Assembly (NCBI GenBank): GCA_963555995.3
Contig: OY821641.1
Location: 3,328,001-3,392,000, forward strand
Source of the DNA: Vicinamibacteria bacterium
GTDB lineage: Bacteria; Acidobacteriota; Vicinamibacteria; Marinacidobacterales; Marinacidobacteraceae
DNA: 64,000 nucleotides
Direction: 5' to 3'
Shown here: positions 1-64,000 of the stretch, in pieces
How the letters are laid out: each line of letters starts with the position of its first letter
How positions within the stretch are numbered: the first letter of the stretch is position 1
Made by a program: the position numbers and the translations under genes
The notes under the pieces: generated by a model
Database searches by the model: none
What the model saw: the letters and a program-made list of their open reading frames with translations, nothing else
Told to the model about the DNA's origin: nothing

Positions 1-1105
1 CAGTCGGGGATTCGGCTCGCGGAAGTGCAGGTGCCGCGGGATCGTTCCCGCGCGCATCGAGAGCAGGACCTTCACGAGACCGGCCACTCCCGCTGCCGCC
101 TCCAGGTGGCCGATGTTCGTCTTCACCGAGCCGAGCAGCAACGGGCGCTCTGCCTCCCGCGCCGCCCCGTACGCGGCGGCCGCCGCCTGCACCTCGATGG
201 GATCTCCCAACTCGGTCCCCGTCCCGTGCGCTTCCAGATAGTCCACCGAGGCGGGCTCGATGCCCGCCCTTGACAGCGCCTCCGCGATCACGAGTTCCTG
301 CGCCGGGCCGTTCGGCACCGTCAACCCCGCACTCGCCCCGTCCTGATTCACCGCCGATCCCAGCAGCAGTCCGAGGATGCGGTCTCCCGCCGCCTCCGCG
401 TCCGCGACGCGCTTCAACACCATGACGCCACAGCCCTCTCCCCGGACATACCCATCCGCGGCCGCATCGAACGTCTTGCAGCGGCCGTCCGGCGAAAGGA
501 TTCCCGCCCCATCCAGCACTTCGTGGCCTCCGCCCAGCAGGATCGCATTCACTCCCCCAGCCAGCGCCAGATCGGCCTCCCGCCGCAACAGGCCGGCCAT
601 CGCCTGGTGCGCCGCCACCAGCGACGAGGAACACGCCGTATCAATCGCCATCGCCGGTCCCTGAAGGCCGAGCGTGAACGCCACCCGGCCGATCGCCGTC
701 GCGAAGCTCGTTCCGGTCACCGCGTGGAACGACGCCGCCCGCTCACCCAGGAGGTGCTGGTAGTCATTGGAACCGATCCCGACGTACACCCCCGTCCGAC
801 TACCCCGCAGGGTTTCGGGATCCAACCCAGCGTCCTCCAGTGCTTCCCAGCTCACTTCCAGAAGGAGACGCTGCTGCGGGTCCAGCACCTCCGCCTCCAC
901 AGGCGCGATCTGGAAGAACTCCGCGTCGAAACGATCCAGTCCCGGAAGGTACGCCCCGTACTGATCCGCGTCACCCGCACTGCTCAGCGCCCCACCCGGC
1001 CGGCCCCTGGTCACCGAATCCGTGCCGGCGGCGAGCTGCTTCCAGAAATCCACCGGACCGACGCCCCCGGGGAAACGGCACCCGATCCCGATCACCGCGA
1101 TCCGC
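1..1105 (-). other. PKS module B9: KS domain (module continues beyond the window)
   Basis: [25 protein letters not shown] (~630), YLEAHGTGT (~225), [12 protein letters not shown] (~105). Confidence 0.92.
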
Positions 1106-4100
1106 TCGTCTTCGGACCGGACCGCGGGAGCGCGCGCGGGCGCAACCGACACGGGCGCACCGAACGCCTCCGCGAGCCGTTCGGAGAGGCGCTCGATGGT
1201 CGGGTAGTCGAACGCCATCGTGGCGGGGGCCACGAACACCCCGGCGAGCTTGCGGTTCACGCGATTCCTCAACTCCATCGCCATCAACGAGTCCATTCCC
1301 AGATCGAAGAACCCAACGGTCGGATCCGGCGCCGCCGCCAACCGGAGCACGCGACGAACCTCCGTTTGGAGGAATCCCGCGAGCAGGGCCCGGCGCTCTT
1401 CGGCGGGCGCGCGTCGAATCCGCTCCACCAGGTTCCCGGCTGGCTCCGGCGCCTCGGCGCCCGACACCGGAACCAGCTCACGAACCAACGGTGGGGCCGG
1501 CGCTCCGGATACGAACCGCGCCCAGTCCACCAACGCGACAACGCCGCTCACCGTCTGCGCCTCGACGAGTTGTTCCAACGTCCGCATCCCCATCGCCGGC
1601 GACAGCCAGGTGATTCCCAGGTCCTGCATCAGCCATTCGACCTGTTCCTGCTGGCGTCCTCCCATCCCCGCCGCCGCCCAGGGTCCCCACGCCACCGCCT
1701 GCCCCGCGAGGCCCAGCGCCCGCCGGCGCCGCGCCAACTGATCCACAAACGCGTTCGCCGCCGCATAGTTGGTCTGGCCCGGGCTGCCCAGGACGCCCAC
1801 CAGGCTCGAATACAACACGAAGAGATCGAGGTCCAGATCCCGCGTCGCGCGGTGCAGCCGCCATCCACCCAGCGCCTTCGCCCCCAGAACCTCCTCGAAG
1901 CGTGACCAGCTCTGGTTCGGCAGCGCCGCATCCCGGAGTGCACCCGCGCAGTGAAAGACCCCGGCGAGCGGCGGCAGGCCCCCGGCCGGTCCCGAACGCG
2001 ATACGAGCCGCTCCACCTCTCCTTCCTCCGTGAGGTCTCCCCGCTCCACCCGGATCTCCACCCCGCGCGCTCCCCACTCCTCGATCCGCCGCTCGGCTTC
2101 GGCGCCCGGGGCGCCCCGCCCATGGAGCACCAGGGCCCCCGCATCGTGCTCCGCCAGCCAGCCCGCCGTCAGCAGGCCCAGGCCGCCCAGGCCGCCCGTC
2201 ACCAGATACGTCCGATCCGCACGAATCGGAACGGCTCCCGTCGCGCTCCCGGGCTCTTCATCGGGGTCCGTTCGAGCCGGCTCCGTCGCGCCACGCCACC
2301 GCACGAGCCGTGGCGCCCGCCGCACGCCCGCCCGATACGCGATCTCGACCTCCCGGTCCGGACCCAGCAACTCCTCGACGACATCCTCGACGGGCTGCTC
2401 CGGCGCCGCAACGCCTGGGTCCAGGTCCAGAAGGCGCACCCCCAGATCCGGTGCCTCCCGCGAGAGCGATCGCCCGAAACCCCAGAGCGCCGCTCCCGAC
2501 GGCTCCCCACCTTGCTCCTCCGCGAGCACCTGCCCCCCCCGCGTCACGAACCAGAGCCCGGCCGGCACGGCCACTCCCGATTCGGACACCCCCTGCGTGA
2601 GCGCCAGCGCGCTCGCTCCCGCCTTCTCCAGGTCCTCGGACAGCGTTGCCGTGTCCGCCTCGCCGCCCCGGCCGGTCAGTCCTCCGAGGTGCACCACCCC
2701 CCGAAACGGGACGTCCCGCGGAAGCTCCGCGAGCGCCTCCCGCCATGAATCCCGAGCTCGGGAAGCGATCCGCAGTCCCTCATAGCCCTCTCCGTCCGGC
2801 GCGGTTTCGCCCGCGAGGATCACACGCTCGCCCCGTCGCACCAGACCCCGCGCCAATGCCTCGCCGAACTCGAGTCCCCAGCCCTCGAGCGGCGCCGCCA
2901 GCAGCCACAACCCCGCCACCGGCACGCCGTCCGGATCCGACGCCACAGTCGGCCCGTCGGCGGCGCCTGGCAGGCGGGGGGCCTCCCGCCAGTCCAGTTC
3001 ATACAGCGGCTCGATCGCGTCCGAAACCGCAGCCTGCGGCGCCGCCGGCTCTACCCGGGACAGGGATCGGTCCCCCTCCACCCAGTACCGCTCCCGCTGG
3101 AACGGATACGTCGGCAGCGACACCCGGCGAGGCTTCTCCCCGGTGAACAGACCCCCGAACGAAACGTCGAGCCCCGCCTCGTACGCCCCCGCTACCGCCC
3201 GAACCCAGCTCTCGCTCCCGCCTCCCGCCGGAACCGACACCACCCGCAGACCCGCGTCCCCCGGCCATGCCGACGACGCCCGCTCGCCCAGCCCCTCTGA
3301 CGGGCCCACCTCCACCAGCAGGCCCACTTCCAGGTCCGACAGCGTCTCCAGCGCACGCTCGAAACGAACCTCCCCTCCCGCCTCCGAACCCCAGGCGCCG
3401 GCCTCCGGAACCCCTTCCTCCAGACGACCACTCGCGCCCCGCACCAGCGGCACCCCCGGCGGCGACGGCGCCCCCTCCCCACCGCGGCCCAGCGCCAGCC
3501 GCAGCCCGTCCTCCAGCTCCACCACCCCCGACGCGCACGCCGCCGCCAACTCCCCCGCACCGCAACCCCAGACCACCCCCGGAACCACCCCCACACTCTC
3601 CCACAGCGCCGTCAGCCCCGCCTGCAGCGCATACCGCGCCGCCGCCGCCAACCCCGCGTCCTCCGCCGCCCCCGGCCAAGCCTCCGGCGGCGGACACTCG
3701 TCCCCCAGCACCGCCGCGCAGCGGTCCACCACCTCGCGGAACGCCGGCTCGATTCCGTACAGCTCCCGCCCCAGACCCAACCACCCCCCGTCCGCCCCCG
3801 CGTAGAGGAACGCGACCTTCCCGGCCGACGACTCCCGACCCTCACCCCCCACCGCTACCTGCCGCAGCCCCGCGCGCAACGTGTCCTCGTCCCGGAACAC
3901 CACCCCCGCACGCCAATCGAAATGGCTCCGCCCGACCCCCGCCGTCCACGCCGCGTCCGCCAGCGGCGCGTCCTCTCCCAGCCACTCCCCGTAACGGCCC
4001 GCCAACTCCCGCAGCGCTCCCTCGTTTTTCCCCGACAGCGGCAGCAGTCGCCAGCCGCGCTGCGCGAGCGGTGCTGCTTCCTCCACCCCCACCGAACCTG

Positions 4101-7100
4101 CCGCCCCTCCCTCGTAGCCCTCCACGATGACGTGCGCGTTCGTCCCCGAGAACCCGAACGAACTCACCCCCGCGCGCCGCGGACGATCCGCCGCCGGCCA
4201 ACCCGTCGCCTCCGACACCACCCGCACCGGTAGCTCCTCCCACGCGATCCGCGGGCTCGGACGCTCGAAGTGCAGGTGCCGCGGGATCTCCGCCGAGCCC
4301 AGCGCCAGCAGCACCTTGATCAGGCCCGCCACCCCCGCCGCCCCCTCCAGGTGACCCACGTTCGTCTTCACCGATCCCACCAGCAGCGGACGCTCCGGGT
4401 CCCGCCCCTCCCCGTACACCGCTCCCGCCGCCGCCACCTCCACCGGATCCCCCAGCTCCGTCCCCGTCCCGTGCGCCTCCAGGTAGTCCACTTCCCACGG
4501 CTCCAACCCCGCACGCAACAGCGCCTCCCCGATCACCCGCTCCTGCGCCGGCCCGTTCGGTACCGTCAAACCCGCGCTCGCCCCGTCCTGGTTCACCGCC
4601 GAGCCCAGCAGCACCCCCAGCACCCGGTCCCCGTCACGCTCCGCATCTGACAGGCGCTTCAGCACCACCATCCCGCATCCCTCTCCCTGCACGAACCCGT
4701 CCGCCGACGCGTCGAACGTCTTGCAGCGTCCGTCCCCCGCCAGCATCCCCGCGTCGGCGAACATCCCCGTCACTCCCGAGAGCAGGATCGCGTTCACTCC
4801 CCCCGCCAGCGCCAGGTCCGCCTCCCCCTGCAAAAGCCCCATCGCCGCCTGGTGCACCGCCACCAGCGACGACGAACACGCCGTGTCCACCGTGATCGCC
4901 GGGCCCGTGAGCCCCAGCGCGAACGAAACACGTCCCACCGCCGTCGAGGCCGTCACCCCCGTCGCCCGATACAGGTTCCGCGCCGGCTCCACCGCCGACG
5001 ACGCCACCAGCATCTGATACTCGCTCCCGCACACGCCCCCGTACACCCCCGTCCGGCTCCCCCGCAGACGCCCCGGCGGCAACCCCGCGTCTTCCAGCGC
5101 CGCCCAGCTCACCTCCAGCAGCAAGCGCTGCTGCGGGTCCAGCAACTCCGCCTCCGACGGCGCGATCCGGAAAAACTCCGCGTCAAACCGGTCCAGCCCC
5201 TCCACATACGCCCCATACGGACGCGCCGACTCCGTCTCCGCATCCACGTAGAGCCCATCCGGACGGCCTCGCGTCACCGCGCACCCCCCCGAACGCAGCA
5301 GCTCCCCGAATCCCCCCAGGTCCACGCCCCCCGGAAAACGGCACGCCATCCCCACCACCGCAACCCGCTCCGCTTCCGAAGGACGCAACGCCAACCCAAT
5401 CCGCCGCGCCGCCACCACCGGCTCGCCCCACCCCAACTCCCCCGCCAGGTGCCGCCCCAGACGCAACGCGTCCGGATGGTCGAACACCGCCGTGTTCGAC
5501 ATCGTCAACACCCCGCCCAACGCCCGGTTCACCCGGTTCCGCAACTCCACCGCCATCAGCGAGTCCATCCCCAGCTCGAAGAACCCCGCGTCCGCGGGCG
5601 GCAACGAGCGCAGACGCAACACCGAAGCCAGCTCCTCCCGCAGGAAGCCCACCAGCGCCGCCTCCCGCTCCGCCGCCGGCAACCCCCGCAGGCGCTCCCC
5701 CAGGTCCCCGCGCATCCCCTGCTCCTCTACCGCCTCCGCACGCACCAGCTCCTCCAGCAGCGGCGGCGGCGACGGCAGCGACGCCCAGTCCACCGACGCC
5801 GCCACGCTCCTCCCCACGTCCGCCCGCACCAGCCGCGTCAGCGCCTCCAACCCGCGCTCCGACGCCATCCACCCCTCCCCATACGCCGCGATCCGCTCCC
5901 CCTGCTCCTCCGCCTCCCCGACTCCCGGCCACGCCCCCCACGCGATCGCCTGGCCCGCCAAACCACGCGAGCGCCGGTGCGCCGCCAACTGGTCCAGGAA
6001 CGCATCCGCCGCCGCGTCGTTCGCACGCCCCGGAGCACCCAGAACCCCCGCCGCACCCGAAAACAGCACGAACAACTCCAGCTCCCGGTCCTCCGTCGCC
6101 CGGTGCAACCGCCACGCCCCCAGGACCTTCGGCCACAGCACCTCCTCGAAACGCCCCCAGTCCAGGTTCACCAGCGCCCCGTCCGACAGAACCCCCGCGC
6201 AGTGGATCACCCCTCCCAGCGGCGGCAGCTCCTCCTCCACTCGCCCCAGCATCGCCGTCACCGCATCCCCGTCCGTCACGTCCGCTATCTCCACCCGAAC
6301 CTCCACCCCCCGACCCCGCAGGCTCGCCACCGCCGCTTCCGCCGCCGCATCCGGCGACCGGCGACCGTTCAGCACCACCGCACCCGCACCCCGTTCGCCC
6401 AGCCAGCCCGCGACCGCCAGACCAACGTCCCCCAGGCCCCCCGTCACCAGGTAACTCCGGTCATTCCGCACCCGCGTCCCCGCCGACGCCGCCTCCGAAC
6501 CCGCCGGAAGCCGCACCAGCCGCGGCACCCGCCGCTCGCCTCCCCGCAACGCAACCCGTGGCTCCCCGTCCGGCCACACCAACTCGTCCGCCAACCGCTC
6601 CGCCGCGAACGGCCCCGCCGGATCCAGGTCCACCAGCCGGACGTTCAGGTCCCGGTGCTCCAGACCCGCCGCCGCTCCCAGCCCCCACAGCGACGCGCCC
6701 GACAGCCCGCCCCCCCGCTCCCCGCCCAACACCTGCCCCCCACGCGTCACCAGCCACAAACCCGATGCCGGCGACGCCCCCGCGTCCGACATCCCCTGCA
6801 ACAGACCCAATACCCCCGAACCCAACTCGCGCAGCCGCCGCTCCAACTCCTCCACCGTCGCCCCCGTCTCGTCGCCCCCGACTCCCGAAACGTCCACCAC
6901 CCCACGCAACCGCTCCTTCCCATCCATATCCCCGAAGAACGACTCCCACGCTTCCCGCTCCCCGCCCGCCGGTCCGCGCCGGACCTCCTGGCCCCGACGC
7001 GAAAGCTCCCCCGCCAACTCCGCAACCTCCGCCCCCTCGCCCGACAGCACGAACAGGCCCCGCTCCCCCGCAACCGCCGCCGGGCCCCGCGCCGCCAGCA

Positions 7101-10100
7101 CCACCTGACCGCCCGCCTCGCCCACCAACGCAACCTCCCCATACCCCGACGCCGACAGCGCCCGCCCCCACGCCTCACGCCCCACCAGCGCGTAGTCCGA
7201 CCGATATACGTCATCGAAACGCCACCAACCCGGCAGCAGTCCGAACGTCAGGTCCAGCCAACCCCGCCGCTCCGTACCCTCCAGCAGCAACAACAACCCC
7301 GACGGCGCCAGCAACCGACGGCAGTGCGCCAGCGACTCCTCCAGGTCCCGCGTCGCGTGCAGCACGTTCGCCGCCACCAACACGTCGAAACCGTGCTCCC
7401 CGAACCCCTGCGCCAACGGGTCCCGCTCGATGTCCAGGACCCGATACCGCACCTCCGCGCCCGCATCCCCGAAACGCCGCTCCGCCGACGACAGGAAACC
7501 CGCCGACACGTCGGTGAACTCGTACTCCGTCCGACCCGACGGCAACGCCGCCAGCACCGCTCCCGTCGTCGCCCCCGTCCCCGCTCCCACCTCCAGGACC
7601 CGAAGGCGCCGGCCCTCCGGCAGACTCGCGACCGCCGCTCCCGCCGCCGCCCCCACCAGGCGGTTCAAAGCCCGCGCCCCCGGCGAACGCCAGTACAGCT
7701 CCGCCGCGCCCGCGCCCCCCTCCCCGAACAGCAACTCCACCGCGTCCGCACGCCCCCGCAACACCTCCGACAGCGATCCACCGCAGCGCGCCAGAACCTC
7801 ACCCTCCACCGAATCCCCACCCGCCCCCGGCGCCGAAACCCCCGCCGGCAGCGGCTCCGCCGAGCCCACCGTCACCAGCCATTCCCCCGCTACGTCCCGC
7901 GCCAGCACACCCCCCTCCTCCAAAAGCGCCAGCAAACGATCGAACAGGCGCTCGTGCTCCCCCGTCACCTTCAACCCACGGCGCAACTCCTCCCCGGCGA
8001 ACCGATCCCCACCAACACGCTCCCAGCCCAGCTCCTCCAGCGCCCGGAGCGCATACCACCGCGACTCCCGCTCCAGCGCTTCTCCCGCCGAAGCCAGCGC
8101 CCCCGCCTCCAACCCCTCCGCCGACAAGTACGAATCCACCGAACCCACCGACGACGCAACCTCCGACGGACCCTCCAGGAACTCCGCCGAACGCAACCCC
8201 ACCGGCGAACCCGCCCGCCAATCCACCTCATACAGCAGCTCGTCCACACCCACCCCCAGCAGCGACGAACGGCTCGCCCGACGCAGCCGGAGACCCTCCA
8301 CCCCCCCCAGCGCCTCTCCCGCCGGACCGTGGATCCCCAGGTCCACCTTCCAGTCCTCCCCCGTAGCCGACCCGGACGCCGGACCCGAGCCCTCCCGCAA
8401 CCGGACCCGGCAGAACACCCGCGCCGGCAGCGGACCCCCCAGCCACAGCCGCTCCCAACCCACCGGAAAACGCGCCCCCTCCTCCCCCGACAGACCCGAC
8501 ACACCCGACAGCGCCTGGAAACACCCGTCCAGCAGCACCGGATGCGCCAGCAGACCCCCACCCGACAACTCCGCCGGCAGCGCAACCTCCCCCAGCGCCT
8601 CCCCCGCACCCGACCACAGACCCGAAAGGCCACGGAACGCCGGACCGAACGCGATCCCCGCCTCCGCCAGCCTCCCGTACACCCCCGCCGGATCCACCTC
8701 CACGAGCCCCGCCCGCACCCCTTCCAAGTCCAAACCCTCGGACGCCTCCGCAGCCCCGGACGCCACCCGACCCGCCGCGTGCTCCTCCCACTCCGAGCTC
8801 GAACCCCCACGGCTCACCACCTCGAAGCCGCCCTCCGACCCCAACACCACCTGCACCGTCCGAACCTCCCCCTCCGAAAACACCAACGGACGCTGGATCT
8901 CCACCTCCTCGAGCGCCCACGGAGAACCCGATCCCGTCTCCCGCAGCGCCTCCAGGACCTGCACCGCATAGAGCGCCCCGGGCGCCAACACCTCCCCGAA
9001 CACCCGGTGGTCCCCGAGCCAACCCGGCGCGCTCCCCGACAACTCCGTCTCGAACGAGACCTCCCCGTCCCGCGCGTCACGGCGCCAACCCAGCAGCGCA
9101 TGCCCCCCCGCCGGACGACGCCGCGGCGCCTCCACCCAGTACCGCTCCCGCTGGAACGGATACGTCGGCACCGACACCCGCCGGCGCGTCTCCCCGGTGA
9201 ACAGACCCCCGAACGAAACGTCGAGCCCCGCCTCGTACGCCTCCCCCACCGCCCGAACCCACCCCTCGCTCCCGTCTCCCGCCGGAACCGACACCACCCG
9301 CAGACCCCCGTCCCCCGGCCACGCCGACGACGCCCGTTCCCCCAGCCCTCCTGACGGGCCCACCTCCACCAGCAGGCCCACGCCCAGCCCCGACAGCGTC
9401 TCCAGCGCCCGCTCGAAGCGCACCTCTCCTTCCGAACCCCAGGCGCCGGCCTCCAGAACCCCTTCCTCCACACGACCGCTCGCGCCGCGCACCAGCGGCA
9501 CCCCCGGCGGCGACGGCGCCCCCTCCCCACCACGGCCCAGCGCCAGCCGCAGCCCGTCCTCCAGATCCAACACCCCCGACGCGCACGCCGCCGCCGCCTC
9601 TCCCGCGCCGCAACCCCAGACCACCTCCGGAACCACCCCCACGCTCGCCCACAGCGCCGTCAGGCCCGCCTGCAGCGCATACCGCGCCGCCGCCGCCAAC
9701 GCCGCGTCCTCCGCCGCCCCCGGCCAGACATCCGGCGGCGGTCCCTCGTCCCCCAACGCCGCCGCGCAGCGGTCCACCACCTCACGGAACGCCGGCTCGA
9801 TCCCATACAGCTCCCGCCCCAGAGCGGACAACCCGCCACCCTCTCCCCCGTAGAGGAACGCGACCTTCCCGGCCGGCGGCTCCCCCGCCGCGCCCGCCGC
9901 GCCCGCCGCGCCCTCCGCCACCTGCCGCAGCCCCGCGCGCAGCGTGTCCTCGTCCCGGAACACCACCCCCGCGCGCCAACCGAAGTGGCTCCGACCCACC
10001 CCCGCCGTCCACGCCGCGTCCGACAGCGACGCGTCCTCGCCCAACCACTCCCCATACCGGCCCGCCAACTCCCGCAGCGCCCGCGCACTCCTCCCCGACA

Positions 10101-13100
10101 GCGGCAGCAACCGCACCTCCCGCTCCCGGAGCGCCGACGCCTCCGCCGGCACCGCCACCGCCGTCGGTTCCCCGGCCTGGCGCCGGAACTCCTCCACGAT
10201 GACGTGCGCGTTCGTCCCCGAATAGCCGAACGAACTCACCCCCGCGCGCCGCGGGCGGTCCGCCGCCGGCCAACCCGTCGCCTCCGACACCACCCGCACC
10301 GGAAGCTCCTCCCACGCGATCCGAGGGTTCGGACGCTCGAAGTGCAGGTGCCGCGGGATCTCCGCCGAACCCAGCGCCAGCAGCACCTTGATCAGACCCG
10401 CAACCCCCGCCGCCCCCTCCAGGTGACCCACGTTCGTCTTCACCGACCCCACCAGCAGCGGACGCTCCGGATCCCGGCCCTCCCCGTACGCCGCTCCCGC
10501 CGCCGCCACCTCCACCGGGTCCCCCAACTCCGTCCCCGTCCCGTGCGCCTCCAGGTAGTCCACCTCCCACGGCTCCAACCCCGCACGCAACAGCGCCTCC
10601 CCGATCACCCGCTCCTGCGCCGGTCCGTTCGGAACCGTCAAACCCGCGCTCGCCCCGTCCTGGTTCACCGCCGAGCCCAGCAGCACCCCCAGCACCCGGT
10701 CCCCGTCACGCTCCGCATCCGACAATCGCTTCAGCACCACCATCCCGCATCCCTCCCCCCGCACGTACCCGTCCGCCGACGCGTCGAACGTCTTGCAGCG
10801 CCCGTCCCCCGCCAGCATCCCACCGTCCGTGAACAGACCGGTCACCCCCGAAGTCAAGATCGCGTTCACCCCCCCCGCCAGCGCCAGGTCCGCCTCCCCC
10901 TGCAAAAGCCCCATCGCCGCCTGGTGCACCGCCACCAGCGACGACGAACACGCCGTGTCCACCGTGATCGCCGGGCCCGTGAGCCCCAGCGCGAACGAAA
11001 CACGTCCCACCGCCGTCGAGGCCGTCACCCCCGTCGCCCGATACAGGTTCCGCGCCGGCTCCACCGCCGACGACGCCACCAGCATCTGATACTCGCTCCC
11101 GCACACGCCCCCATACACCCCCGTCCGGCTCCCCCGCAGACGCCCCGGCGCCAGACCCGCGTCCTCCAGCGCCGCCCAGCTCACCTCCAGCAGCAAGCGC
11201 TGCTGCGGGTCCAGCAACTCCGCCTCCGACGGCGCGATCCGGAAAAACTCCGCGTCAAACCGGTCCAACCCCTCCACATACGCCCCATACGGACGCGCCG
11301 ACTCCGTCTCCCCGTCCACGAACAGCCCGTCCGGACGCCCCCGCGTCACCGCGCACCCCCCCGAACGCAGCAACTCCCCGAATCCTCCCAGGTCCGCACC
11401 CCCCGGAAAACGGCACGCCATCCCCACCACCGCAACCCGATCCGCTGCCGACGGACGCGCCACCACCCGCGGGACCCCCGACACGGGCTCGCCCCACCCC
11501 AACTCTCCCGCCAGGCGCCGCGCCAGACGCGTCGCGTCCGGGTGGTCGAACACCGCCGTGTTCGACATCGTCAACACTCCACCCAACGCCCGGTTCACCC
11601 GGTTCCGCAACTCCACCGCCATCAGCGAGTCCATCCCCAGCTCGAAGAACCCCGCGTCCGCGGGCGGCAACGACCGCAGCCGCAGCACCGACGCCAGCTC
11701 CTCCCGCAGGAAGCCCACCAGCGCCGCCTCCCGCTCCGGCTCCGGCAGCCCCCGCAGGCGCTCCCCCAGGTCCCCGCGCACCCCACGCTCCTCCACCGCC
11801 TCCGCACGCACCAGCTCCTCCAGCAACGGCGGCGGCGACGACAGCGACGTCCAGTCCACCGACGCCGCAACGCTCCTCCCCACGTCCGCCCGCACCAGCC
11901 GCGTCAGCGCCTCCAGCCCGCGCTCCGGCGCCATCCACCCCTCCCCATACGCCGCGACCCGGCCCGCGATCCGCTCCCGCTGCTCCTCCGCCTCCCCCAC
12001 GCCCGACCACGCCCCCCACGCGATCGCCTGGCCCGCCAAACCACGCGAGCGCCGGTGCGCCGCCAACTGGTCCAGGAACGCATTCGCCGCCGCGTGGTTC
12101 GCCTGACCCGCGCTCCCGAACACCCCCGCCGCGCTCGAAAACAGCACGAACAACTCCAGCTCCCGGTCCTCCGTCGCCCGGTGCAGCCGCCACGCCCCCA
12201 GGACCTTCGGCCACAGCACCTCCTCGAAGCGTCCCCAGTCCAGGTTCACCAGCGCCCCGTCCGACAGCACCCCCACGCAGTGCAGCACCCCTCCCAGCGG
12301 CGGCAGCTCCTCCTCCACCCGCCCCAGCATCGCCGCCACCGCAGCCCCGTCCGTCACGTCCGCAATCTCCACCCGAACCTCCACCCCCCGACCCCGCAGG
12401 CTCTCCACCGCCGCTTCCGCCGCCGCGTCCGGCGCCCGGCGACCGTTCAGCACCACCGCACCCGCACCCCGGTCACCCAGCCACCCGGCGACCGCCAGAC
12501 CAACGCCCCCCAGGCCCCCCGTCACCAGGTAACTCCGGTCTCCACGCAAACGCCCCCCCGCCAACGCCGACGGCAGCAGCACGTTCTTCCCCACGTGACG
12601 CGCCTCCCGCATCGTCTCCAACGCCCCTCCCGCTTCCAGCAGCGGCCACCGGCCGAACGGAAGCGGCTCCAGCTCTCCCGAACCCAGGCGGCCCACCACG
12701 TCCCGCAACACCGAACCCAAACGCCCCGGGTCCTCTCGACCCAAACGGTCCACCCCCAAGACCCAATACCGCACCTCCGGCCGCAGCTCCGCAACCTCCG
12801 CCGCACTCCAGATCCCACGCTTCCCCAACTCCACGAAACAACCCCCCTCCCGCAAACACCCCAGCCCCGCCTCCACGAACCCCGCTCCCGTCAGGCTGTT
12901 CAGAACCAGGTCCACCCCCTCACCCCCCGTCGCCGCCAGCACCCCCTCTCCGAATCCAACGTCCCGGCTGTCGAACACCCAGCGAACACCCAGCGAACGC
13001 AGGTACTCCTGCTTCGGCGCGCTCGCCGTCGAATACACCTCATGCCCCGCCGCCCGCGCCAGCCGGATCGCCGCCTGGCCCACGCCCCCCGTCCCCGCGT

Positions 13101-40100: not shown

Positions 40101-43100
40101 CGCCCCCCGTCCCCGCGTGGATCAATACCCGAGAACCCGACCGCAAACCCGCGAACCGATACGCCAACTCCGCCGTCACGTACGCCACCGGCACCGTCGC
40201 CAGCTCCCCCGCCGTATGCCCCGCCGGCGCCAACGCCAACAACTCCGCCCGCGTCACCACCTCCGGTCCGAACGCGCCCGCCGCGAACCCCAGCACCCGC
40301 TCCCCGACCGACAAACCCGAAACCCCCGACCCCAACTCCACGACCCGACCGCACACCTCTCCGCCCAGCAGAAGCTCCTCCTCCAGAAGCCCCATCCCGA
40401 GCATCACGTCCAGGAAGTTCACCCCCGCCGCCTCCACCGCAACCCGGACCTCCCCCGCTCCCAGAGGAACCTCCGGAACCGACTCCGCCCGCAGCCCCGA
40501 CAACGATCCATCCGCATCCGGCGACAACCGCCAGCCGCCAGCCTCCGGCAACTCCACTCCCGGTCCCGAGCGCACCAGCCGGGGCACCAGCCGCCCGCCT
40601 CCCCGCAACGCAACCCGCGGCTCCCCGTCCGGCCACACCAACTCGTCCGCCAACCGCTCCGCCGTGAACGGACCCCCCGGGTCCACGTCCACCAGCCGGA
40701 CGTTCAGGTCCCGGTGCTCCAGGCCCGCCACCGCACCAAGACCCCACAGCGACGCACCCGACAGCGCGCCCCCCCGCTCCCCGCCCAACACCTGCCCCCC
40801 CCGCGTCACCAGCCACAGACCCGAGGCCGGCGCCGTCCCCGCGTCCGACATCCCCTGCAACAGACTCAGGGCGCTCCCCCCGATCTCCTCCAACTCCAGC
40901 GAAAGCTCCGAAACCGTCGCCCCCGCACTGTCTCCCCGAACCGCCGCCAGGTGCGCCACCCCACGCAACGGAGCGTCTCCCGCGAGCGACGCGAAGAACC
41001 GGCGCCAACCCTCCCGGTCCGCCGACCCCGAGGGACCGAACGACACTTCCTGGCCCCGACGCGAAAGCTCCCCCGCCAACTCCGCCGCCACCGCCCCTTC
41101 CCCCGACACCACGAACAGGCCCCGCTCCCCCGCAACCGCCGCCGGGCCCCGCGCCGCCAGCACCACCTGACCGCCCGCCTCGCCCACCAACGCAACCTCC
41201 CCATACCCCGACGCCGACAGCGCCCGCCCCCAATCCTCACGCCCCACCAGCGCGTAGTCCGACCGATACCCGTCCGCGAAACGCCACCAACCCGGAAGCA
41301 GTCCGAACGTCAGGTCCAGCCAACCCCGCCGCTCCGTCCCCTCCAGCAGCAACAACAACCCCGACGGCGCCAGCAACCGACGGCAGTGCGCCAGCGACTC
41401 CTCCAGGTCCCGCGTCGCGTGCAGCACGTTCGCCGCCACCACCACGTCGAAACCGTGCTCCCCGAACCCCTGCGCCAACGGGTCCCGCTCGATGTCCAGG
41501 ACCCGATACCGCACCTCCGCGCCCGCATCCCCGAAACGCCGCTCCGCCGACGACAGGAAACCCGCCGACACGTCCGTGAACTCGTACTCCGTCCGACCCG
41601 ACGGCAACGCCGCCAGCACCGCTCCCGTCGTCGCCCCCGTCCCCGCTCCCACCTCCAGGACCCGAAGGCGCCGGCCCTCCGGCAGACCCGCGACCGCCGC
41701 TCCCGCCGCCGCCCCCACCAGGCGGTTCAAAGCCCGCGCCCCCGGCGAACGCCAGTACAGCTCCGCCGCGCCCGCGCCCCCCTCCCCGAACAGCAACTCC
41801 ACCGCGTCCGCACGCCCCCGCAACACCTCCGACAGCGATCCACCGCAGCGCGCCAGAACCTCACCCTCCACCGAATCCCCACCCGCCCCCGGCGCCGAAA
41901 CCCCCGCCGGCAGCGGCTCCGCCGAGCCCACCGTCACCAGCCATTCCCCCGCAACGTCCCGCGCCAGCACACCCCCCTCCTCCAGCAGCGCCAGCAACCG
42001 ACCGAACAGCTTCCGGTGCTCCCCCGTCACTTTCAACCCACGACGCAACCCCTCCTCCGATACCCGGTCGCCCGATGACCGCTCCCAACCCAACTCCTCG
42101 AGCGCCCGCAGCGCATACCAGCGCGACTCCCGCTCCAGCGCCTCCCCCGCCGAAGCCAGCGCCCCCGCCTCCAACCCCTCCGCCGACAAGTACGCATCCA
42201 CCGAACCCACCGACGACGCCACCTGGGACGGTTCCACGAGGAACTCCGCCGAACGCAACCCCACCGGCGGCCCCGAGCGCCAATCCACCTCATACAGCAA
42301 CTCCCCGACCCCCACCCCCAGGACCGCCGAGCGGCCCGCCCGCTTCAACGTCAAACCCGATACCCCGCCCAACGCCTCCCCTCCCAAGCCATACAGCGCC
42401 AGGTCCCCCTTCCTCACCTCACCCGAGCCCCTCCCCTCACGCAGCCGCGCGTGGCACACCAGCCGTCCCGGAAGACGACCCCAAATCCACAGCCGCTCCC
42501 AGCCCCACGGTAGCCACACCTCCTCCCCCTCCAGGTCCCCCCACGCCCCCGACAGAACCTGGAAACACCCGTCCAGCAGCACCGGGTGCGCCAGCAGGCC
42601 CCCGCCCGACAACTCCACCGGCAGCGCCACCTCTCCCAGCGCCGCGCCCTCCCCCCGCCACAGCGCCCCCAGCGTCCGGAACGCCGGCCCGTAGGCGATC
42701 CCCACCGACGCCAGCCGACCATACAGCTCCGGGACCGCAGCCGGGCTCAACTCCCCGCGCAGCGCAGCGAGGTCCACCGCCTCCCCAACGCCGCCGCCGC
42801 CGGCCTCCCAGCGCCCCTCCGCGTGCAGCTCCCACGCCTCCCCAACGCTTCCCGCCCGGCTCGCCACCTCGAAGCCATCGTCACGTCCCGAAACCACCTG
42901 CACCGTCCGCGACGCGTCGCCCCGGAACACCAGCGGACGGCGGAACTGCACCTCCGGCAGCGCCACCCCGCCCGACTCCCCGTCATCCCTCCCCCGCTCC
43001 CCGAACGCCTCCAGCGCCTGCGACGCATACAGCGCTCCCGGCGCGAGCGCCTCCCCATACACCCGGTGCTCCCCCAGCCAGACCGGATCGCCCGCGCCCA

Positions 43101-46100
43101 TCTCCCGCTCCCACGAAACCTCGCCCCCGCGGGAGTCCCGCCGCTCCCCCAGCAGCGGGTGCACCGCCGACCGCCGCGCCTTCGCCCCCTCCACCCAGTA
43201 CCGCTCCCGCTGGAACGGATACGTCGGCAGCGATACCCGCCGGCGCGTCTCCCCGGGGAACAGACCCTCGAACGAAACGTCGAGCCCCGCCTCGTACGCC
43301 TCTCCCACCGCCCGAACCCAGCCCTCGCTCCCGCCTCCCGACGGAACCGACACCACCCGCAGACCCCCGTCCCCCGGCCACGCCGACGACGCCCGCTCGC
43401 CCAGCCCTCCCGACGGGCCAACCTCCACCAGCAGTCCCACTCCCAGACCCGACAGCGTCTCCAGCGCTCGCTCGAAGCGCACCTCTCCTTCCGTACCCCA
43501 GACGCCCGCCTCCGGCACTCCTTCCTCCACACGGCCGCTCGCGCCACGCACCAGCGGCACTTCCGGCGGCGACAGCGCCCCCTCGAATACACGACCCAGC
43601 GCCAGCCGCAGCCCGCCCTCCAGATCCAGCCCCCCCGACGCACACGCCGCCGCCAACTCCCCCGCTCCGCAACCCCAGACCACCCCCGGAACCACCCCCA
43701 CGCTCGCCCACAGCGCCGTCAGGCCCGCCTGCAGCGCATACCGCGCCGCCGCCGCCAACTCCGTGTCCTCCTCCGCCCCGGGCCAGGTCGCCGGCGGCAT
43801 GTACCCGTCCCCCAGCGCCGCTGTGCAGCGGTCCACCACCTCGCGGAACGCCGGCTCGCTCCCGTACAGCTCCCGCCCCAGACCCGACCACCCGCCGCTC
43901 TCTCCCCCGTAGAGGAACGCGACCTTCCCCGCCGACGACTCCCGACCCACGTCTCCCTCCGCCACCTGCCGCAGCCCCGCGCGCAGCGTGCCCTCGTCCC
44001 GGAACACCACCCCCGCGCGCCAACCGAAGTGGCTCCGCCCCACCCCCGCCGTCCACGCCGCGTCCGACAGCGACGCGTCCTCGCCCAACCACTCCCCATA
44101 CCGGCCCGCCAACTCCCGCAGCGCCCGCGCACTCCTCCCCGACAGCGGCAGCAGCCGCACCTCCCGCTCCCGGAGCGCCGGCGCCTCCGCCGGCGCCGCA
44201 ACCGCCGTCGCTTCCCCGGCCGGAGGCCGGAACTCTTCCACGATGACGTGCGCGTTCGTCCCCGAATAGCCGAACGAGCTCACCCCCGCTCGCCGCGGGC
44301 GGTCCGTCGCCGGCCAACCCGTCGCCTCCGACACCACCCGCACCGGCAACTCCGCCCACGGGATCCGCGGGTTCGGACGCTCGAAGTGCAGGTGCCGCGG
44401 GATTTCCCCCGAACCCAGCGCCAGCAGCACCTTGATCAGACCCGCAACCCCCGCCGCCCCCTCCAGGTGACCCACGTTCGTCTTCACCGAACCCAGCAGC
44501 AGCGGACGCTCCGGGTCCCGACCCTCCCGGTACGCCGACCCCGCCGCCACTACCTCCACCGGGTCTCCCAGCTCCGTCCCCGTCCCGTGCGCCTCCAGGT
44601 AGTCCACTTCCCACGGCTCCAACCCCGCACGCCCCAGCGCCTCCCCGATCACCCGCTCCTGCGCCGGGCCGTTCGGAACCGTCAAACCCGCGCTCGCCCC
44701 GTCCTGGTTCACCGCCGAGCCCAGCAACACCCCCAGCACCCGGTCCCCGTCACGCTCCGCATCCGACAAACGCTTCAGCACCACCATCCCGCACCCCTCG
44801 CCCCGCACGAACCCGTCCGCCGACGCGTCGAACGTCTTGCAGCATCCGTCCGACGCCAGCATCCCCGCGTCGGCGAACATCTCCGTCACTCCCGAGAGCA
44901 GGATCGCGTTCACTCCCCCCGCCAGCGCCAGGTCCGCCTCCCCCTGCAGCAGCCCCATCGCCGCCTGGTGCACCGCTACCAGCGACGACGAACACGCCGT
45001 GTCCACCGTGATCGCCGGACCCTCCAGACCCAGCGCGAACGAAACCCGTCCCACCGCCGTCGAGAACGACACTCCGCTACCCCGATAGAGACTCCGCGAG
45101 GGATCGCTGACACCCGCCACCAACTCCCGGTAGTCGTTGTTCATCATCCCCCCGTACACCCCGGCCCGGCTCCCCCGGAGGCCGCCCGGGTCCAGCCCCG
45201 CGTCCTCCAGCGCCGCCCAGCTCACCTCCAGCAGCAAGCGCTGCTGCGGGTCCAGCAACTCCGCCTCCGACGGCGCGATCCGGAAAAAACCCGCATCGAA
45301 TCGGTCCAGCCCCTCCACATACGCCCCATACGGACGCGCCGACTCCGTCTCCGCATCCACGTAGAGCCCATCCGGACGGCCCCGCGTCACCGCAAACCCC
45401 CCCGAACGCAGCAACTCCCCGAATCCCCTCAGGTCCGCACCCCCCGGAAAACGGCACGCCATCCCCACCACCGCAACCCGATCCGCTGCCGACGGACGCG
45501 CCACCAGACCCACCCGCCGGACCTCCGCCGCCGGCTCGCCCCACCCCAACGCACCCGCCAGGTGCCGCCCCAGACGCAACGCGTCCGGATGGTCGAACAC
45601 CGCCGTGTTCGACATCGTCAACACCCCGCCCAACGCCCGGTTCACCCGGTTCCGCAACTCCACCGCCATCAGCGAGTCCATCCCCAGCTCGAAGAAACCC
45701 GCATCCGCCGCCGGCCACGACCGCAGTCGCAGCACCGACGCCAGCTCCTCCCGCAAGAACTCCACCAGCGCCGTCTCGCGCTCCGCCGCCGGCAGCCCCC
45801 GCAGGCGCTCCCCCAGGTCCCCGCGCACCCCCCGCTCCTCCAACCCCTCCGCACGCACCAGCTCTTCCAGCAACGGCGGCGGCGACGACAGCGACGTCCA
45901 GTCCACCGACGCCGCAACGCTCCTCCCCACGTCCGCACGCACCAGCCGCGTCAGCGCCTCCAACCCGCGCTCCGGCGCCATCCACCCCTCCCCATACGCC
46001 GCGATCCGATCCGCGATCCGATCCCGCTGCTCCTCTGCCTCCCCCACGCCCGACCACGCCCCCCACGCGATCGCCTGACCCGCCAAACCACGCGAGCGCC

Positions 46101-49100
46101 GGTGCGCCGCCAACTGGTCCAGGAACGCATTCGCCGCCGCGTGGTTCGCCTGACCCGCGTTCCCGAACACCCCCGCCGCGCTCGAAAACAGCACGAACAG
46201 CTCCAGCTCCCGGTCCTCCGTCGCCCGGTGCAACCGCCACGCCCCCAGAACCTTCGGCCACAGCACCTCCTCGAAACGCCCCCAGTCCAGGTTCACCAGC
46301 GCCCCGTCCGACAGAACCCCCGCGCAGTGGATCACCCCTCCCAGCGCCGGCAGCTCCTCCTCCACCCGCCCCAGCATCGCCGTCACCGCATCCCCGTCCG
46401 TCACGTCCGCAATCTCCACCCGAACCTCCACCCCCCGACCCCGCAGGCTCTCCACCGCCGCTTCCGCCGCCGCATCCGGCGACCGGCGACCGTTCAGCAC
46501 CACCGCACCCGCACCCCGCTCGCCCAGCCAGCCCGCGACCGCCAGACCAATGCCCCCCAGGCCCCCCGTCACCAGGTAACTCCGGTCATTCCGCACCCGC
46601 GTCCCCGCCGACGCCGCCTCCGAACCCGCCGGAAGCCGCACCAGCCGCGGCACCCGCCGCTCGCCTCCCCGCAACGCAACCCGTGGCTCCCCGTCCGGCC
46701 ACACCAACTCGTCCGCCAACCGCTCCGCCGCGAACGGCCCCGCCGGGTCCACATCCACCAGCCGGACGTTCAGGTCCCGGTGCTCCAGCCCCGCCACCGC
46801 TCCCAGCCCCCACAGCGACGCGCCCGACAGCCCGCCCTCCTGCTCCCCGCCCAACACCTGTCCCCCCCGCGTCACCAGCCACAGACCCGAGGCCGGCGCC
46901 GTCCCCGCATCCGACATCCCCTGCAACAGACCCAATACCCCCGAACCCAACTCGCGCAGCCGCCGCTCCAACTCCTCCACCGTCGCCCCCGCCTCGTCTT
47001 CACCGACTCCCGAAACGTCCACCACCCCTCGCAACCGCTCCTTCCCATCCAGCTCCCCGAAGAACGACTCCCACGCTTCCCGCTCCCCGCCCGCCGGTCC
47101 GCGCCGGACCTCCTGGCCCCGACGCGAAAGCTCCTCCGCCAACTCCGCCGCCACCGCCCCTTCCCCCGACAGCACGAACAGGCCCCGCTCCCCCGCAACC
47201 TCCGCCGGACCCCGCGCCGCCAGCACCACCTGATCCCCCGCCTCCCCCACCAGCGCAACCTCCCCATACCCCGCCTCCGACAGCGCCCGGCTCCACGCCT
47301 CACGCCCCACCAGCGCGTAGTCCGACCGATACCCGTCCGCGAAACGCCACCAACCCGGAAGCAGTCCGAACGTCAGGTCCAGCCAGCCCCGCCGCTCCGT
47401 CCCCTCCAGCAGCAACAACAATCCCGACGGCGCCAGCAACCGACGGCAGTGCGCCAGCGACTCCTCCAGGTCCCGCGTCGCGTACAGCACGTTCGCCGCC
47501 ACCACCACGTCGAAACCGTGCTCCCCGAACCCCTGCGCCAACGGGTCCCGCTCGATGTCCAGGACCCGATACCTCACCTCCGCGCCCGACCCCCCGAAAC
47601 GCCGCTCCGCCGACGACAGGAAACCCGCCGACACGTCCGTGAACTCGTACTCCGTCCGACCCGACGGCAACTCCGCCAGCACCGCTCCCGTCGTCGCCCC
47701 CGTCCCCGCTCCCACCTCCAGGATCCGAAGACGCCGGCCCTCCGGCAGACCCGTGACCGCCGCCCCCACCGCCGCTCCCACCAGGCGGTTCAGCACCCGC
47801 GCCCCCGGTGACCGCCAATACAGCTCCGCCGCGCCCGCTCCCCCCTCACCGAACAGCAACTCCACCGCGTCCGCACGCCCCCGCAACACCTCCGACAGCC
47901 ATGCCCCGCAGCGCTCCAGAACCTCACCCTCCACCGAATCCCCACCCGCCCCCGGCGCCGAAACCCCCGCCGGCAGCGGCTCCGCCGAGCCCACCGTCAC
48001 CAGCCATTCCCCCGCTACGTCCCGCGCCAGCACACCCCCCTCCTCCAGCAGCGCCAGCAACCGACCGAACAGGCGCCCGTGCTCCCCCGTCACCTTCAAC
48101 GCACGACGCAACCCCTCCTCCGATACCCGGTCGCCCGATGACCGCTCCCAACCCAACTCCTCGAGCGCCCGCAGCGCATACCAGCGCGACTCCCGCTCCA
48201 GCGCCTCCCCCGCCGAAGCCAGCGCCCCCGCCTCCAACCCCTCCGCCGACAAGTACGCATCCACCGAACCCACCGACGACGCAACCTCCGACGGACCCTC
48301 CAGGAACTCCGCCGAACGCAACCCCACCGGCGGCCCCGAGCGCCAATCCACCTCATACAGCAACTCCCCGACCCCCACCCCCAGGAGCGCCGAGCGGCCC
48401 GCCCGCTTCAGCGTCAAACCCGATACCTCGCCCAACACCTCCCCACCCGCGCCATACAGCGCCAGGTCCGCCTTCCTCACCTCACCCGGTCCGCTCCCCT
48501 CCCGCAGCCGTGCGTGGCACCGCAGCCGGCCCGGGAGGCGACCACAAACCCACAGCCGCTCCCAGCCCCACGGAAGCCATACCTCCTCCCCCTCCAGATC
48601 CCCCCACGCCCCCGACAGAACCTGGAAACACCCGTCCAGAAGCACCGGGTGCGCCCGGAGGCCCTCCGCCGCCAGCGCCGGCGGCAGTGAAACCTCTCCC
48701 AACGCCTCGCCAACGCCTCGCCACAGCGCCCCCAGCGACCGGAACGCCGGGCCGTAGGCGAACCCGGCGGACGCCAGTCGCCCATACAGGTCCGGGACCG
48801 CGACCGGGCTCAACTTCTCGCGCAGCGCATCGAGCTCCGCCGCTTCCGCGCCGCCGCCGCCCGCGCCCCAGCGCCCCTCCGCGTGCAACTCCCAGGCCTC
48901 CCCTCCGACGCCCTCCCGGCTCGCTACCTCGAAGCTCTCACCTCCCGACACCACCTGCACCGTCCGGTACGCGTCGCCCCGGAACACCAGCGGCCGGCCG
49001 AATTGCACCTCCGTGACCGCCACCACTCCCGACTCCCCGTCCTCCCCAGCACGCTCCCCGAACGCCTCCAACGCCTGCGACGCATACAGCGCCCCCGGCG

Positions 49101-51636: not shown

Positions 51637-51700
51637 CGTCATCCTCGCTCAACGCGGCCAGGACTTCCGCCAGCAACTGCTCGTCGTCCTCGGTGGAGTC
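51550..51700 (-). other. Docking-domain pair at the gene A/gene B junction; the genes overlap by 14 bp
   Basis: Acidic C-terminus of A ([25 protein letters not shown]) and basic N-terminus of B (RDLTRRLVGQLKARKREIARLRE) directly before the KS. The stop of A (51623-51625) lies inside the first codons of B. Confidence 0.8.
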
Positions 51701-63700: not shown

Positions 63701-64000
63701 TCCGGCCAACATCAACTGGTAGTCGCTGCCACACACTCCCCCATAGACCCCCGTGCGGCTCCCCCGGAGACTCCCCGGGGCCAGCCCCGCGTCCTCCAGA
63801 GCCGCCCAACTCACCTCCAGCAACAACCGTTGCTGCGGGTCCAGCAACTCCGCCTCCACCGGCGCGATCCGGAAGAACTCCGCATCGAAGCGGTCCAGCC
63901 CCTCCACGTACCCCCCGAACGAACGCGCGGCCTCCGTCTCCGCGTCCACGAACAACCCGTCCGGACGACCCTCGGTCACCGCATCCAGCCCCGAACGGAG
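51623..64000 (-). CDS. Modular type I PKS (gene A), 5'-truncated by the window; last two modules plus C-terminal docking domain
   Basis: ORF-track 4118-aa protein. Its 'start' at 63979 is an internal GTG inside a KS, since the frame continues [13 protein letters not shown] to the window edge. Motifs: DTACSSS x2, [36 protein letters not shown], TGGLGGxG x2, LGMDSL x2. TGA at 51625-51623. Confidence 0.97.
51642..51650 (-). promoter_or_regulatory. Putative ribosome-binding site of gene B (GAGCGAGGA), within the 3' end of gene A
   Basis: The minus strand reads GAGCGAGG-ATGACG-ATGGCG, placing GAGG 6 nt upstream of the ATG at 51636. Confidence 0.55.
51750..58690 (-). other. PKS module A2: KS-AT0-DH-cMT-ER-KR(His)-ACP
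   Basis: [24 protein letters not shown]; AT remnant VWGCGAGEL; [12 protein letters not shown]; [13 protein letters not shown] and HVLHAT; [12 protein letters not shown]; [11 protein letters not shown]; [12 protein letters not shown]. Confidence 0.92.
58750..64000 (-). other. PKS module A1: KS-AT(full length)-DH-KR-ACP, no MT or ER
   Basis: KS DTACSSS / EAHGAGT / GHLEGAAG; AT GQGSQW, GHSAG (Ser 62171-62173), RRGELM, HAFQS; [12 protein letters not shown] and [10 protein letters not shown]; [19 protein letters not shown]; [12 protein letters not shown]. Confidence 0.92.

Follow-up and report, generated by a model that had tools for sequence, protein, structure and literature searches.

Two adjoining giant polyketide synthase genes of the Sup clade in a Vicinamibacteria genome appear to lack any catalytically intact acyltransferase

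RESULTS

The window examined here is a stretch of 64,000 nucleotides (C1:3328001-3392000) from a Vicinamibacteria genome of 3.80 Mb (2 contigs, 70% GC, ~93% complete). On its minus strand, a frame without stop extends from position 51642, or from the ATG at 51636, to the left edge of the window, which corresponds to 17,214 and 17,212 codons, respectively. A preliminary description of this DNA had reported a hidden single open reading frame of at least 17,212 codons from ATG 51636, and this frame is indeed open over its whole length. Extension into the genome encountered neither an in-frame stop nor a frameshift before the stop at C1:3320783, located 7,217 bases left of the window. The complete gene, referred to as gene B (G000, C1:3320783-3379636; 1..51636 of the minus strand in the window), measures 19,619 aa from 51642, and 19,617 aa from ATG 51636, with a predicted mass of 2.04 MDa in the latter case, in line with the at least 1.8 MDa proposed earlier. 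ATG 51636 is the likelier start, because a GAGG is situated six bases upstream of it. In 20 shuffles of the DNA the longest stop-free run was 651 codons, and the GC3 of gene B is 0.87. Of note, the plus strand also contains several stop-free frames of 1,500-2,500 codons between window positions 1-50000, where the coding strand has a strong G skew, and these frames can be explained as shadows of a gene rich in Gly/Glu and in GC3.

Gene B is the longest frame in the genome, and the second longest, gene A (15,878 codons stop to stop), is located directly upstream. The two genes together cover 106 kb without a stop or frameshift, occupy 2.8% of the genome, and encode 15,800 (A) and 19,617 (B) residues, 3.7 MDa in total, with 17 elongating modules, 8 in A and 9 in B. 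The stop of gene A overlaps the start of gene B by 14 bases. The window contains the 3' end of gene A (51623..64000, minus strand; full frame C1:3379623-3427259), with modules A8 and A9 and an acidic, helix-like C-terminal tail of docking type, while gene B opens with a basic helical leader (51550..51636, minus strand) that, judged by its sequence character, may likewise serve in docking. Such docking-type helices are present only at the A/B boundary, and at all nine internal ACP-KS joins of gene B the domains are connected covalently by a short linker (42-45 matched residues), which agrees with the earlier statement that gene B has no internal docking domains. That description had also counted at least 9 KS domains; there are nine in the window and a tenth beyond its left edge.

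All modules in the window are on the minus strand. Module B1 (45478..51549) has the domain order KS-AT-DH-MT-KR-ACP, and modules B2 (38455..45477), B4 (25393..32460), B5 (18409..25392) and B6 (11437..18408) have the order KS-AT-DH-MT-ER-KR-ACP. Modules B3 (32461..38454) and B7 (5371..11436) are built like B1, with a KR that is likely inactive as its Tyr is replaced by Asp. Module B8 (1108..5370) is reduced to KS-AT-KR-ACP, and module B9 begins in the window with its KS (1..1107) and continues outside it with AT-DH-ER-KR-ACP. The acyltransferase (AT) is deleted in each of these modules, and this is also the case in module A9 (51626..58684; KS-AT-DH-MT-ER-KR-ACP), which carries the same deletion as B1-B8. 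Beyond the left edge, gene B finishes module B9 and ends with a terminal, non-elongating KS (B10) without the second His, a deleted AT and then the stop, with neither ACP nor TE. Gene A starts with a KS(S)-ACP loading module, followed by KS-AT-KR-ACP, KS-AT-ACP, and six reducing modules, three of which contain a C-methyltransferase (MT). The catalytic Cys-His-His residues are present in 17/17 elongating KS domains and the Ser in 18/18 ACPs. In total, 10 modules contain an MT and 8 an ER, and the catalytic residue is missing from 2 KRs.

Mycolactone synthase MlsA1 measures ~17,000 aa, and on this scale the preliminary description had ranked gene B among the largest known bacterial proteins. This was an overstatement, since at least 26,722 aa are encoded in a single frame of a relative from the same family (see below), and a preprint (10.1101/2023.11.21.568195), in the part accessible to us, describes 46 Omnitrophota genes of more than 90 kb, encoding up to 85,804 aa, along with 7,478 gap-free proteins whose length is 10,624 aa or more. 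A size record is ruled out by these examples, and gene B is very large, yet unexceptional in length even within its own family.

Gene B is rich in repeats. Exact repeats of at least 200 bp cover 46% of it and reach 4,532 bp, and near-identical tracts extend to 6,025 bp. The modules span 6.0-7.1 kb and the repeats are shorter, with the exception of the 6,025-bp tract, which matches the shortest modules. The repeats are mosaic, different tracts pairing different modules without any whole-module duplicate, and the AT-linker variant is unique to each module, except that B3 and B6 have the same one. Contigs of 4 sequencing runs (X1-X4), which represent at most 3 samples of 1 study and possibly include the source itself, cover 34001-54000 and cross the A/B junction with 0 differences. 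The listed indels relative to these contigs amount to none in X1-X3 and two minority indels in X4. Contig depth, which is not identical to copy number, was compared to the assembled 31-mer copy number for 12 hand-picked stretches of 31 listed records. In X3, the depth was 38-45 for single-copy sequence, 162 for a 4.0-copy tract and 210 for a 5.05-copy tract, with similar results for X1 and X4, and in X2 the depth of the contig at 34440-35012 was below that predicted from the assembled copy number. Taken together, the depths support the assembled copy number without proving it. None of the contig records of the 4 runs spans a whole repeat, so the module order of B is not proved by reads. Apparent strain differences in the contigs at 40039-40517 were discarded, as 19/19 letters checked match the B4/B5 paralogs.

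It is very improbable that the gene length or the number of modules is an assembly artefact of these near-identical repeats. The repeat content, the lack of a spanning contig and the low depth of the one X2 contig could be read in this way, but the mosaic pairing and the nearly always module-specific AT-linkers argue against it, as do the other depths, most of which follow copy number (~4x at 4.0 copies and ~5x at 5.05), and the similar giant frames in relatives. Moreover, an artefact would leave the dead ATs unexplained, and the same dead ATs occur in other assemblies.

The alignment of the AT domains revealed an intact Ser-His pair in 0/18 ATs of genes A and B. Fifteen have lost a whole subdomain as well as the Ser, two have lost the Ser, and in one the His is changed to Gln. 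In A2 and A7 the AT has its full length, and Gly replaces the Ser. The AT of module A8 (61580..62437, minus strand) is also full length and is the only one in the cluster with the catalytic Ser (GHSAG); it keeps the GQGSQW motif and the Arg, and has Gln for the catalytic His (HAFQ). At this position, a His is found in 320/320 homologous Ser-bearing ATs of the alignment. The His to Gln change concerns one codon in one assembly and was seen in the sequence of that assembly only, and no close homolog of the A8 AT (>72%) was present among 7,992 scored candidates. The 15 deleted ATs miss a segment equivalent to CurL residues ~711-804, i.e. the small subdomain with the HAFH His loop, and retain most of the large subdomain. 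A structure model of the KS-AT remnant of B2 (pLDDT 87; TM 0.88 to the CurL KS-AT, 4MZ0) predicts the fold of a KS-AT didomain from which the small subdomain is missing. Sequence matches to the AT remnant region included PDB 4OQJ, the structure of OzmQ, which has a partial AT; reportedly, Lohman in 2015 regarded it as an evolutionary intermediate. The dead AT of B4 is also found in P0022 and P0093, two proteins of other assemblies with KS identities of 95% and 93%, so the AT loss is not peculiar to this assembly. In the relatives described below, 45/45 aligned ATs of elongating modules have Ser, Arg, and His, a count that applies to the examined contigs and to modules with a matched end motif (one G042 module, for example, was dropped), and dead ATs sit only at loading or terminal positions. 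Judged by these residues, none of the built-in acyltransferases of A and B is catalytically intact.

Phylogenetic trees of the AT and KS domains were constructed with FastTree and midpoint-rooted. The AT tree, built on 230 shared columns, places the internal dead ATs within the group of the cluster's full-length ATs (support 92 for this key clade), and the group adjoins the active ATs of G041 and G042 (support 97), apart from the terminal dead ATs. This placement rules out that the internal dead ATs were copied from the terminal dead AT. The ATs of A9 and B1-B8 form one clade (support 100) with a common deepest deletion, and their single junction rules out several independent deletions in B. 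The AT remnants have long branches, and the A8 AT has a short branch like the active ATs. Because of this grouping and the shared deepest deletion, the ATs, once active, would have decayed in place, from point loss to subdomain deletion to deeper deletion, after which duplication and gene conversion would have brought the most decayed, AT-less module to nine copies.

Pooled dN/dS values were 0.31 for KS, 0.25 for MT, 0.28 for KR, 0.33 for ER, 0.40 for ACP, 0.46 for DH and 0.57 for the AT remnants, the latter still below 1. These are crude NG86 counts from non-independent paralog pairs of a GC3-biased gene, and they cover the modules other than A1-A3, B1, B9 and B10, and for the AT also other than A7 and A8. 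By this measure, the non-AT domains of A and B look maintained.

The KS tree (144 rows) places the KS domains of A, B and the relatives, together with KS1 and KS2 of SupA, in one clade of 122 rows (support 100, branch 0.35). SupA proper constitutes a subclade of its own, to which the KS domains of A and B do not belong. The outside sequences came from 11 proteins and one Swf-like KS, and trans-AT systems were sampled thinly and without labels. Within the clade, the KS domains mostly group by cluster of origin; B2-B8 constitute a within-cluster clade, and those of G042 pair with A1, A2, B1 and B10. As the tree was midpoint-rooted, it allows no inference on whether the monomodular or the multimodular form came first. 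A search with an ER-KR query, using one genome per species, returned 79 loci, of which one was too short and five, from three genomes, are multimodular. The other 73 are organised fully or partly like SupA, with a single module that reduces and methylates and, in most cases, a terminal KS after it, which may or may not be accompanied by a dead AT. Of the three multimodular genomes, the alphaproteobacterial G041 encodes at least 26,722 aa of a Sup-clade PKS in one frame (C6:1-80166) that is truncated where the contig begins; it comprises 12 elongating modules, its ATs are intact, and it exceeds gene B in length. Genome G042 (Longimicrobiales) has a pair of frames of 9,110 and 10,338 aa, and G043/G018, a member of the Vicinamibacteria, has three frames of 8,080, 6,374 and 7,613 aa. 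The latter belongs to the same family as the host, which is thereby assigned to Acidobacteriota. Further multimodular Sup-clade fragments are present in G006, G007, G012, G015 and G023. Eight or more KS matches were found in 6 of 40 relatives, mostly on broken contigs, and nine or more in 4 of 15 genomes of the same genus. Multimodular Sup-clade relatives are present in three phyla. In G042, the last module is split between DH and MT over two frames of 10,338 and 2,053 aa (C1:252517-258675 of that genome), which is a frameshift, either real or from sequencing.

The host is likely a sponge symbiont, based on the taxa of the homolog loci and on the tie between Sup and sponges in the literature; in the parts of the publications available to us, Sup is described as confined to high-microbial-abundance sponges (PMC4245539, PMC9864124, PMC9426513). 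The one run labelled 'sponge metagenome' contains only 0.07 of the sequence words, and no RNA run was listed among those containing this sequence, which is neutral as to expression.

The KR domains differ between modules with and without an MT. In the cluster, the catalytic residue is Tyr in 6/6 MT-less modules, and among the 10 MT modules it is His in 8 and Asp in 2. In a survey that covered the cluster, G041-G043 and loci L011-L084, a His-type KR was present in 72/73 Sup KRs, and in the relatives the Tyr to His change occurred in 16/27 MT modules and 0/14 modules without MT (some unparsed). In G042, the KR at a similar position is likely dead. By analogy with SupA, we assumed that the His-type KRs are active, and it may be that His in place of Tyr slows the reduction, so that methylation precedes it.

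In the whole genome, ATs with both Ser and His motifs are restricted to FabD, SupA and a Swf-like PKS, none of them in the cluster. The only stand-alone AT found in a genome-wide PF00698 search is FabD, 2.4 Mb away, and in this assembly of ~93% completeness the search revealed neither a cluster-linked AT nor a second FabD. A canonical monomodular supA (C1:3252371-3262741, a 3,457-codon frame whose first AT is intact) lies 58 kb from the end of B with a hydrolase of its own. The Swf-like PKS (C1:1341293-1361535) is a frame of 2,738 codons with the motifs GHSSGE and IAFH, and the one match in the genome to the PPTase family (Sfp-like) is 12 kb from this PKS and 2 Mb from the cluster. Just upstream of gene A lies a gene for a Ser-type alpha/beta hydrolase of 305 aa, and the same hydrolase family is present at 69/74 Sup loci and at all three complete AT-intact relatives. 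Divergent from this gene is a small ACP-like ORF with a GLSSL motif (L004:17764-18156, plus strand), for which there was no Pfam or NCBIfam match. A gene for an RND/MMPL-like transporter (L004:18313-20000 and L005:1-1510, minus strand) is located ~2 kb upstream of A. Approximately 20 kb upstream of A, a fusion of reductase, acyl-CoA ligase, carrier and acyltransferase (L005:16173-19955, minus strand) fits the description of a sponge ether-lipid (elbD-like) gene in the accessible part of PMC9426513. The genes downstream of B are unrelated to the cluster; a myo-inositol-1-phosphate synthase and a 4Fe-4S protein (L001:10150-12360, plus strand) end head-to-head with the stop of B.

DISCUSSION

The sup cluster was reportedly described by Fieseler in 2007 and Hochmuth in 2010. 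Sup clusters have discrete ACP and PPTase genes nearby, whereas genes A and B have no adjacent PPTase, and the ACP-like ORF next to the hydrolase lacks a family match. They resemble SupA in the clade of their KS domains, in the KS-AT-DH-MT-ER-KR-ACP module, in the His-type KR of the MT modules, in the adjacent hydrolase family, and in the terminal KS and dead AT without ACP or TE, an ending that B has in common with most Sup loci surveyed. However, SupA is monomodular, measures ~3,400 aa and has an intact AT, whereas the cluster comprises 17 elongating modules in two giant genes without an intact AT. The accessible part of PMC4245539 describes the Sup PKS as small and monomodular, with mid-chain methyl-branched fatty acids only proposed as the product. 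The multimodular relatives share with the cluster the KS(S) loading module (where the start was assembled), the terminal KS with dead AT, the flanking hydrolase and the repeat-driven expansion of modules, but the 45 aligned ATs of their elongating modules are intact. A giant multimodular form from sponges has already been reported, SA1_PKSA from a Discodermia dissoluta metagenome (Schirmer, 2005), which is said to be a single ORF of 25,572 aa (~25,600) whose 14 modules methylate and reduce, with a multimethyl-branched fatty acid as its proposed product; we liken it to the present cluster by description only. A protein search, which covered sequences of up to 2,000 aa, yielded no match under this name. 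Mycolactone synthases MlsA1 and MlsB, encoded on a Mycobacterium plasmid, have intact ATs and near-identical modules that arose by duplication and gene conversion, and here the likeness, also drawn from description, is limited to megadalton size and repetitiveness.

Like trans-AT PKSs, genes A and B consist of modules that, by sequence, are without a working integrated AT. Unlike those systems, they have Sup-clade KS domains, which do not group with the trans-AT-like KSs sampled; the KS domains of trans-AT lines group by substrate rather than by cluster. The cluster shows neither a discrete AT gene nor tandem ACPs nor split modules. The cluster also differs from cis-AT modular type I PKSs, as no elongating module has an intact AT of its own. 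Descent from a cis-AT system is supported by the AT tree and by the predicted fold, the model being closest to cis-AT KS-AT didomains. The cluster is neither a SupA, being multimodular and without an intact AT, nor a member of the trans-AT family, having no discrete AT gene and Sup-clade KS domains, and its sequence suggests that it likely works like a trans-AT line.

Based on these features, we think that A and B probably constitute a 17-step Sup-clade assembly line that is loaded with malonyl in trans by FabD or the AT of SupA and makes a polymethyl-branched lipid of ~C36. An AT from outside would be needed, because the line looks maintained, yet has no AT of its own that appears to work. 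Gene product A would hand the chain to B via the terminal docking helices, each module would add C2, with SAM methylation where an MT is present and reduction according to the domain set, and the dead ATs would still fold, providing a scaffold between KS and DH. If the KS(S) module supplies an acetyl starter and 17 malonyl units follow, the chain would reach C36 with up to 10 methyls, its positions being partly saturated and partly ene, keto or hydroxyl, although the starter, and hence the length, is a guess. Release or transfer of the chain would fall to the adjacent Sup-type alpha/beta hydrolase, and its export to the envelope possibly to the RND/MMPL-like transporter nearby. The housekeeping FabD would be the first choice as malonyl donor, with the closely related AT of SupA as the second, because FabD1 loads the romidepsin PKS (DepB/DepC) in trans, according to the accessible part of a preprint (bioRxiv 10.1101/2025.03.13.642940).

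A donor within the cluster would be the AT of module A8, which could serve the whole line alone, either through residual activity with Ser, Arg and Gln or because the Gln codon reflects an error or strain variation. This AT is full length, has kept GQGSQW, Ser and Arg, and has the short branch of active ATs, and being the only AT in the cluster that still has the Ser hints at selection. Nevertheless, we consider this unlikely, since the His is invariant in the 320 homologs, full length alone does not imply activity, given that A2 and A7 are full length yet have no Ser, and 16 further ACPs, spread over two megadalton chains, would have to be within reach of a single AT. Even if the A8 codon were to read His, the other 16 modules would depend on an AT located outside the module itself. 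The need for a donor would disappear if the cluster were dead or dying following the loss of its ATs, with high GC and gene conversion delaying visible decay. This would account for the lack of both an intact AT and a cluster-linked AT gene, and for the patchy distribution in the genus, but we regard it as distinctly improbable, more so than a role for A8, since 106 kb have stayed free of stops and frameshifts with all KS triads and ACP serines kept, the AT remnants have diverged far (long branches) while the other domains have dN/dS values of 0.25-0.46, the AT-less module was amplified after the AT loss, and the cluster takes up 2.8% of the genome.

Loading could also proceed without a recognised AT. 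Some type II ACPs self-malonylate, and the ACPs of A and B might do the same, or the KS-AT scaffolds might recruit an unrecognised acyltransferase, for which the Ser-type hydrolase just upstream of A would be at hand. We give this hardly any credence, as the hydrolase family also accompanies 69 of 74 Sup loci and the three AT-intact relatives, and its presence is therefore no response to AT loss.

The origin of trans-AT lines, and whether cis-AT lines convert, is a long-standing question, and to our knowledge there are few natural intermediates between cis-AT and trans-AT. We lean towards the view that the cluster represents an independent trans-AT origin, in which a complete 17-step line descended from cis-AT Sup-clade ancestors shut down all its ATs in graded steps, kept expanding, and runs on FabD or the AT of SupA. 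A literature search yielded no title or abstract on a multimodular or AT-less Sup PKS; this search included few subscription journals and no supplements, and is weak evidence of novelty. As a size record, gene B matters little, and its notable feature is that no AT appears to be intact. A branch of the Sup family, which has been described as monomodular, is multimodular and occurs in three phyla. It is fragmented in short-read assemblies, its frames measure 20-27 thousand residues, and its product is a putative lipid. This family presents the states before and after AT loss together, with AT-intact relatives on the one hand and, on the other, a cluster that combines dead ATs of full length with partly and deeply deleted ones. 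If the cluster is indeed an independent trans-AT origin, the AT-intact relatives in three phyla would remain for comparison.
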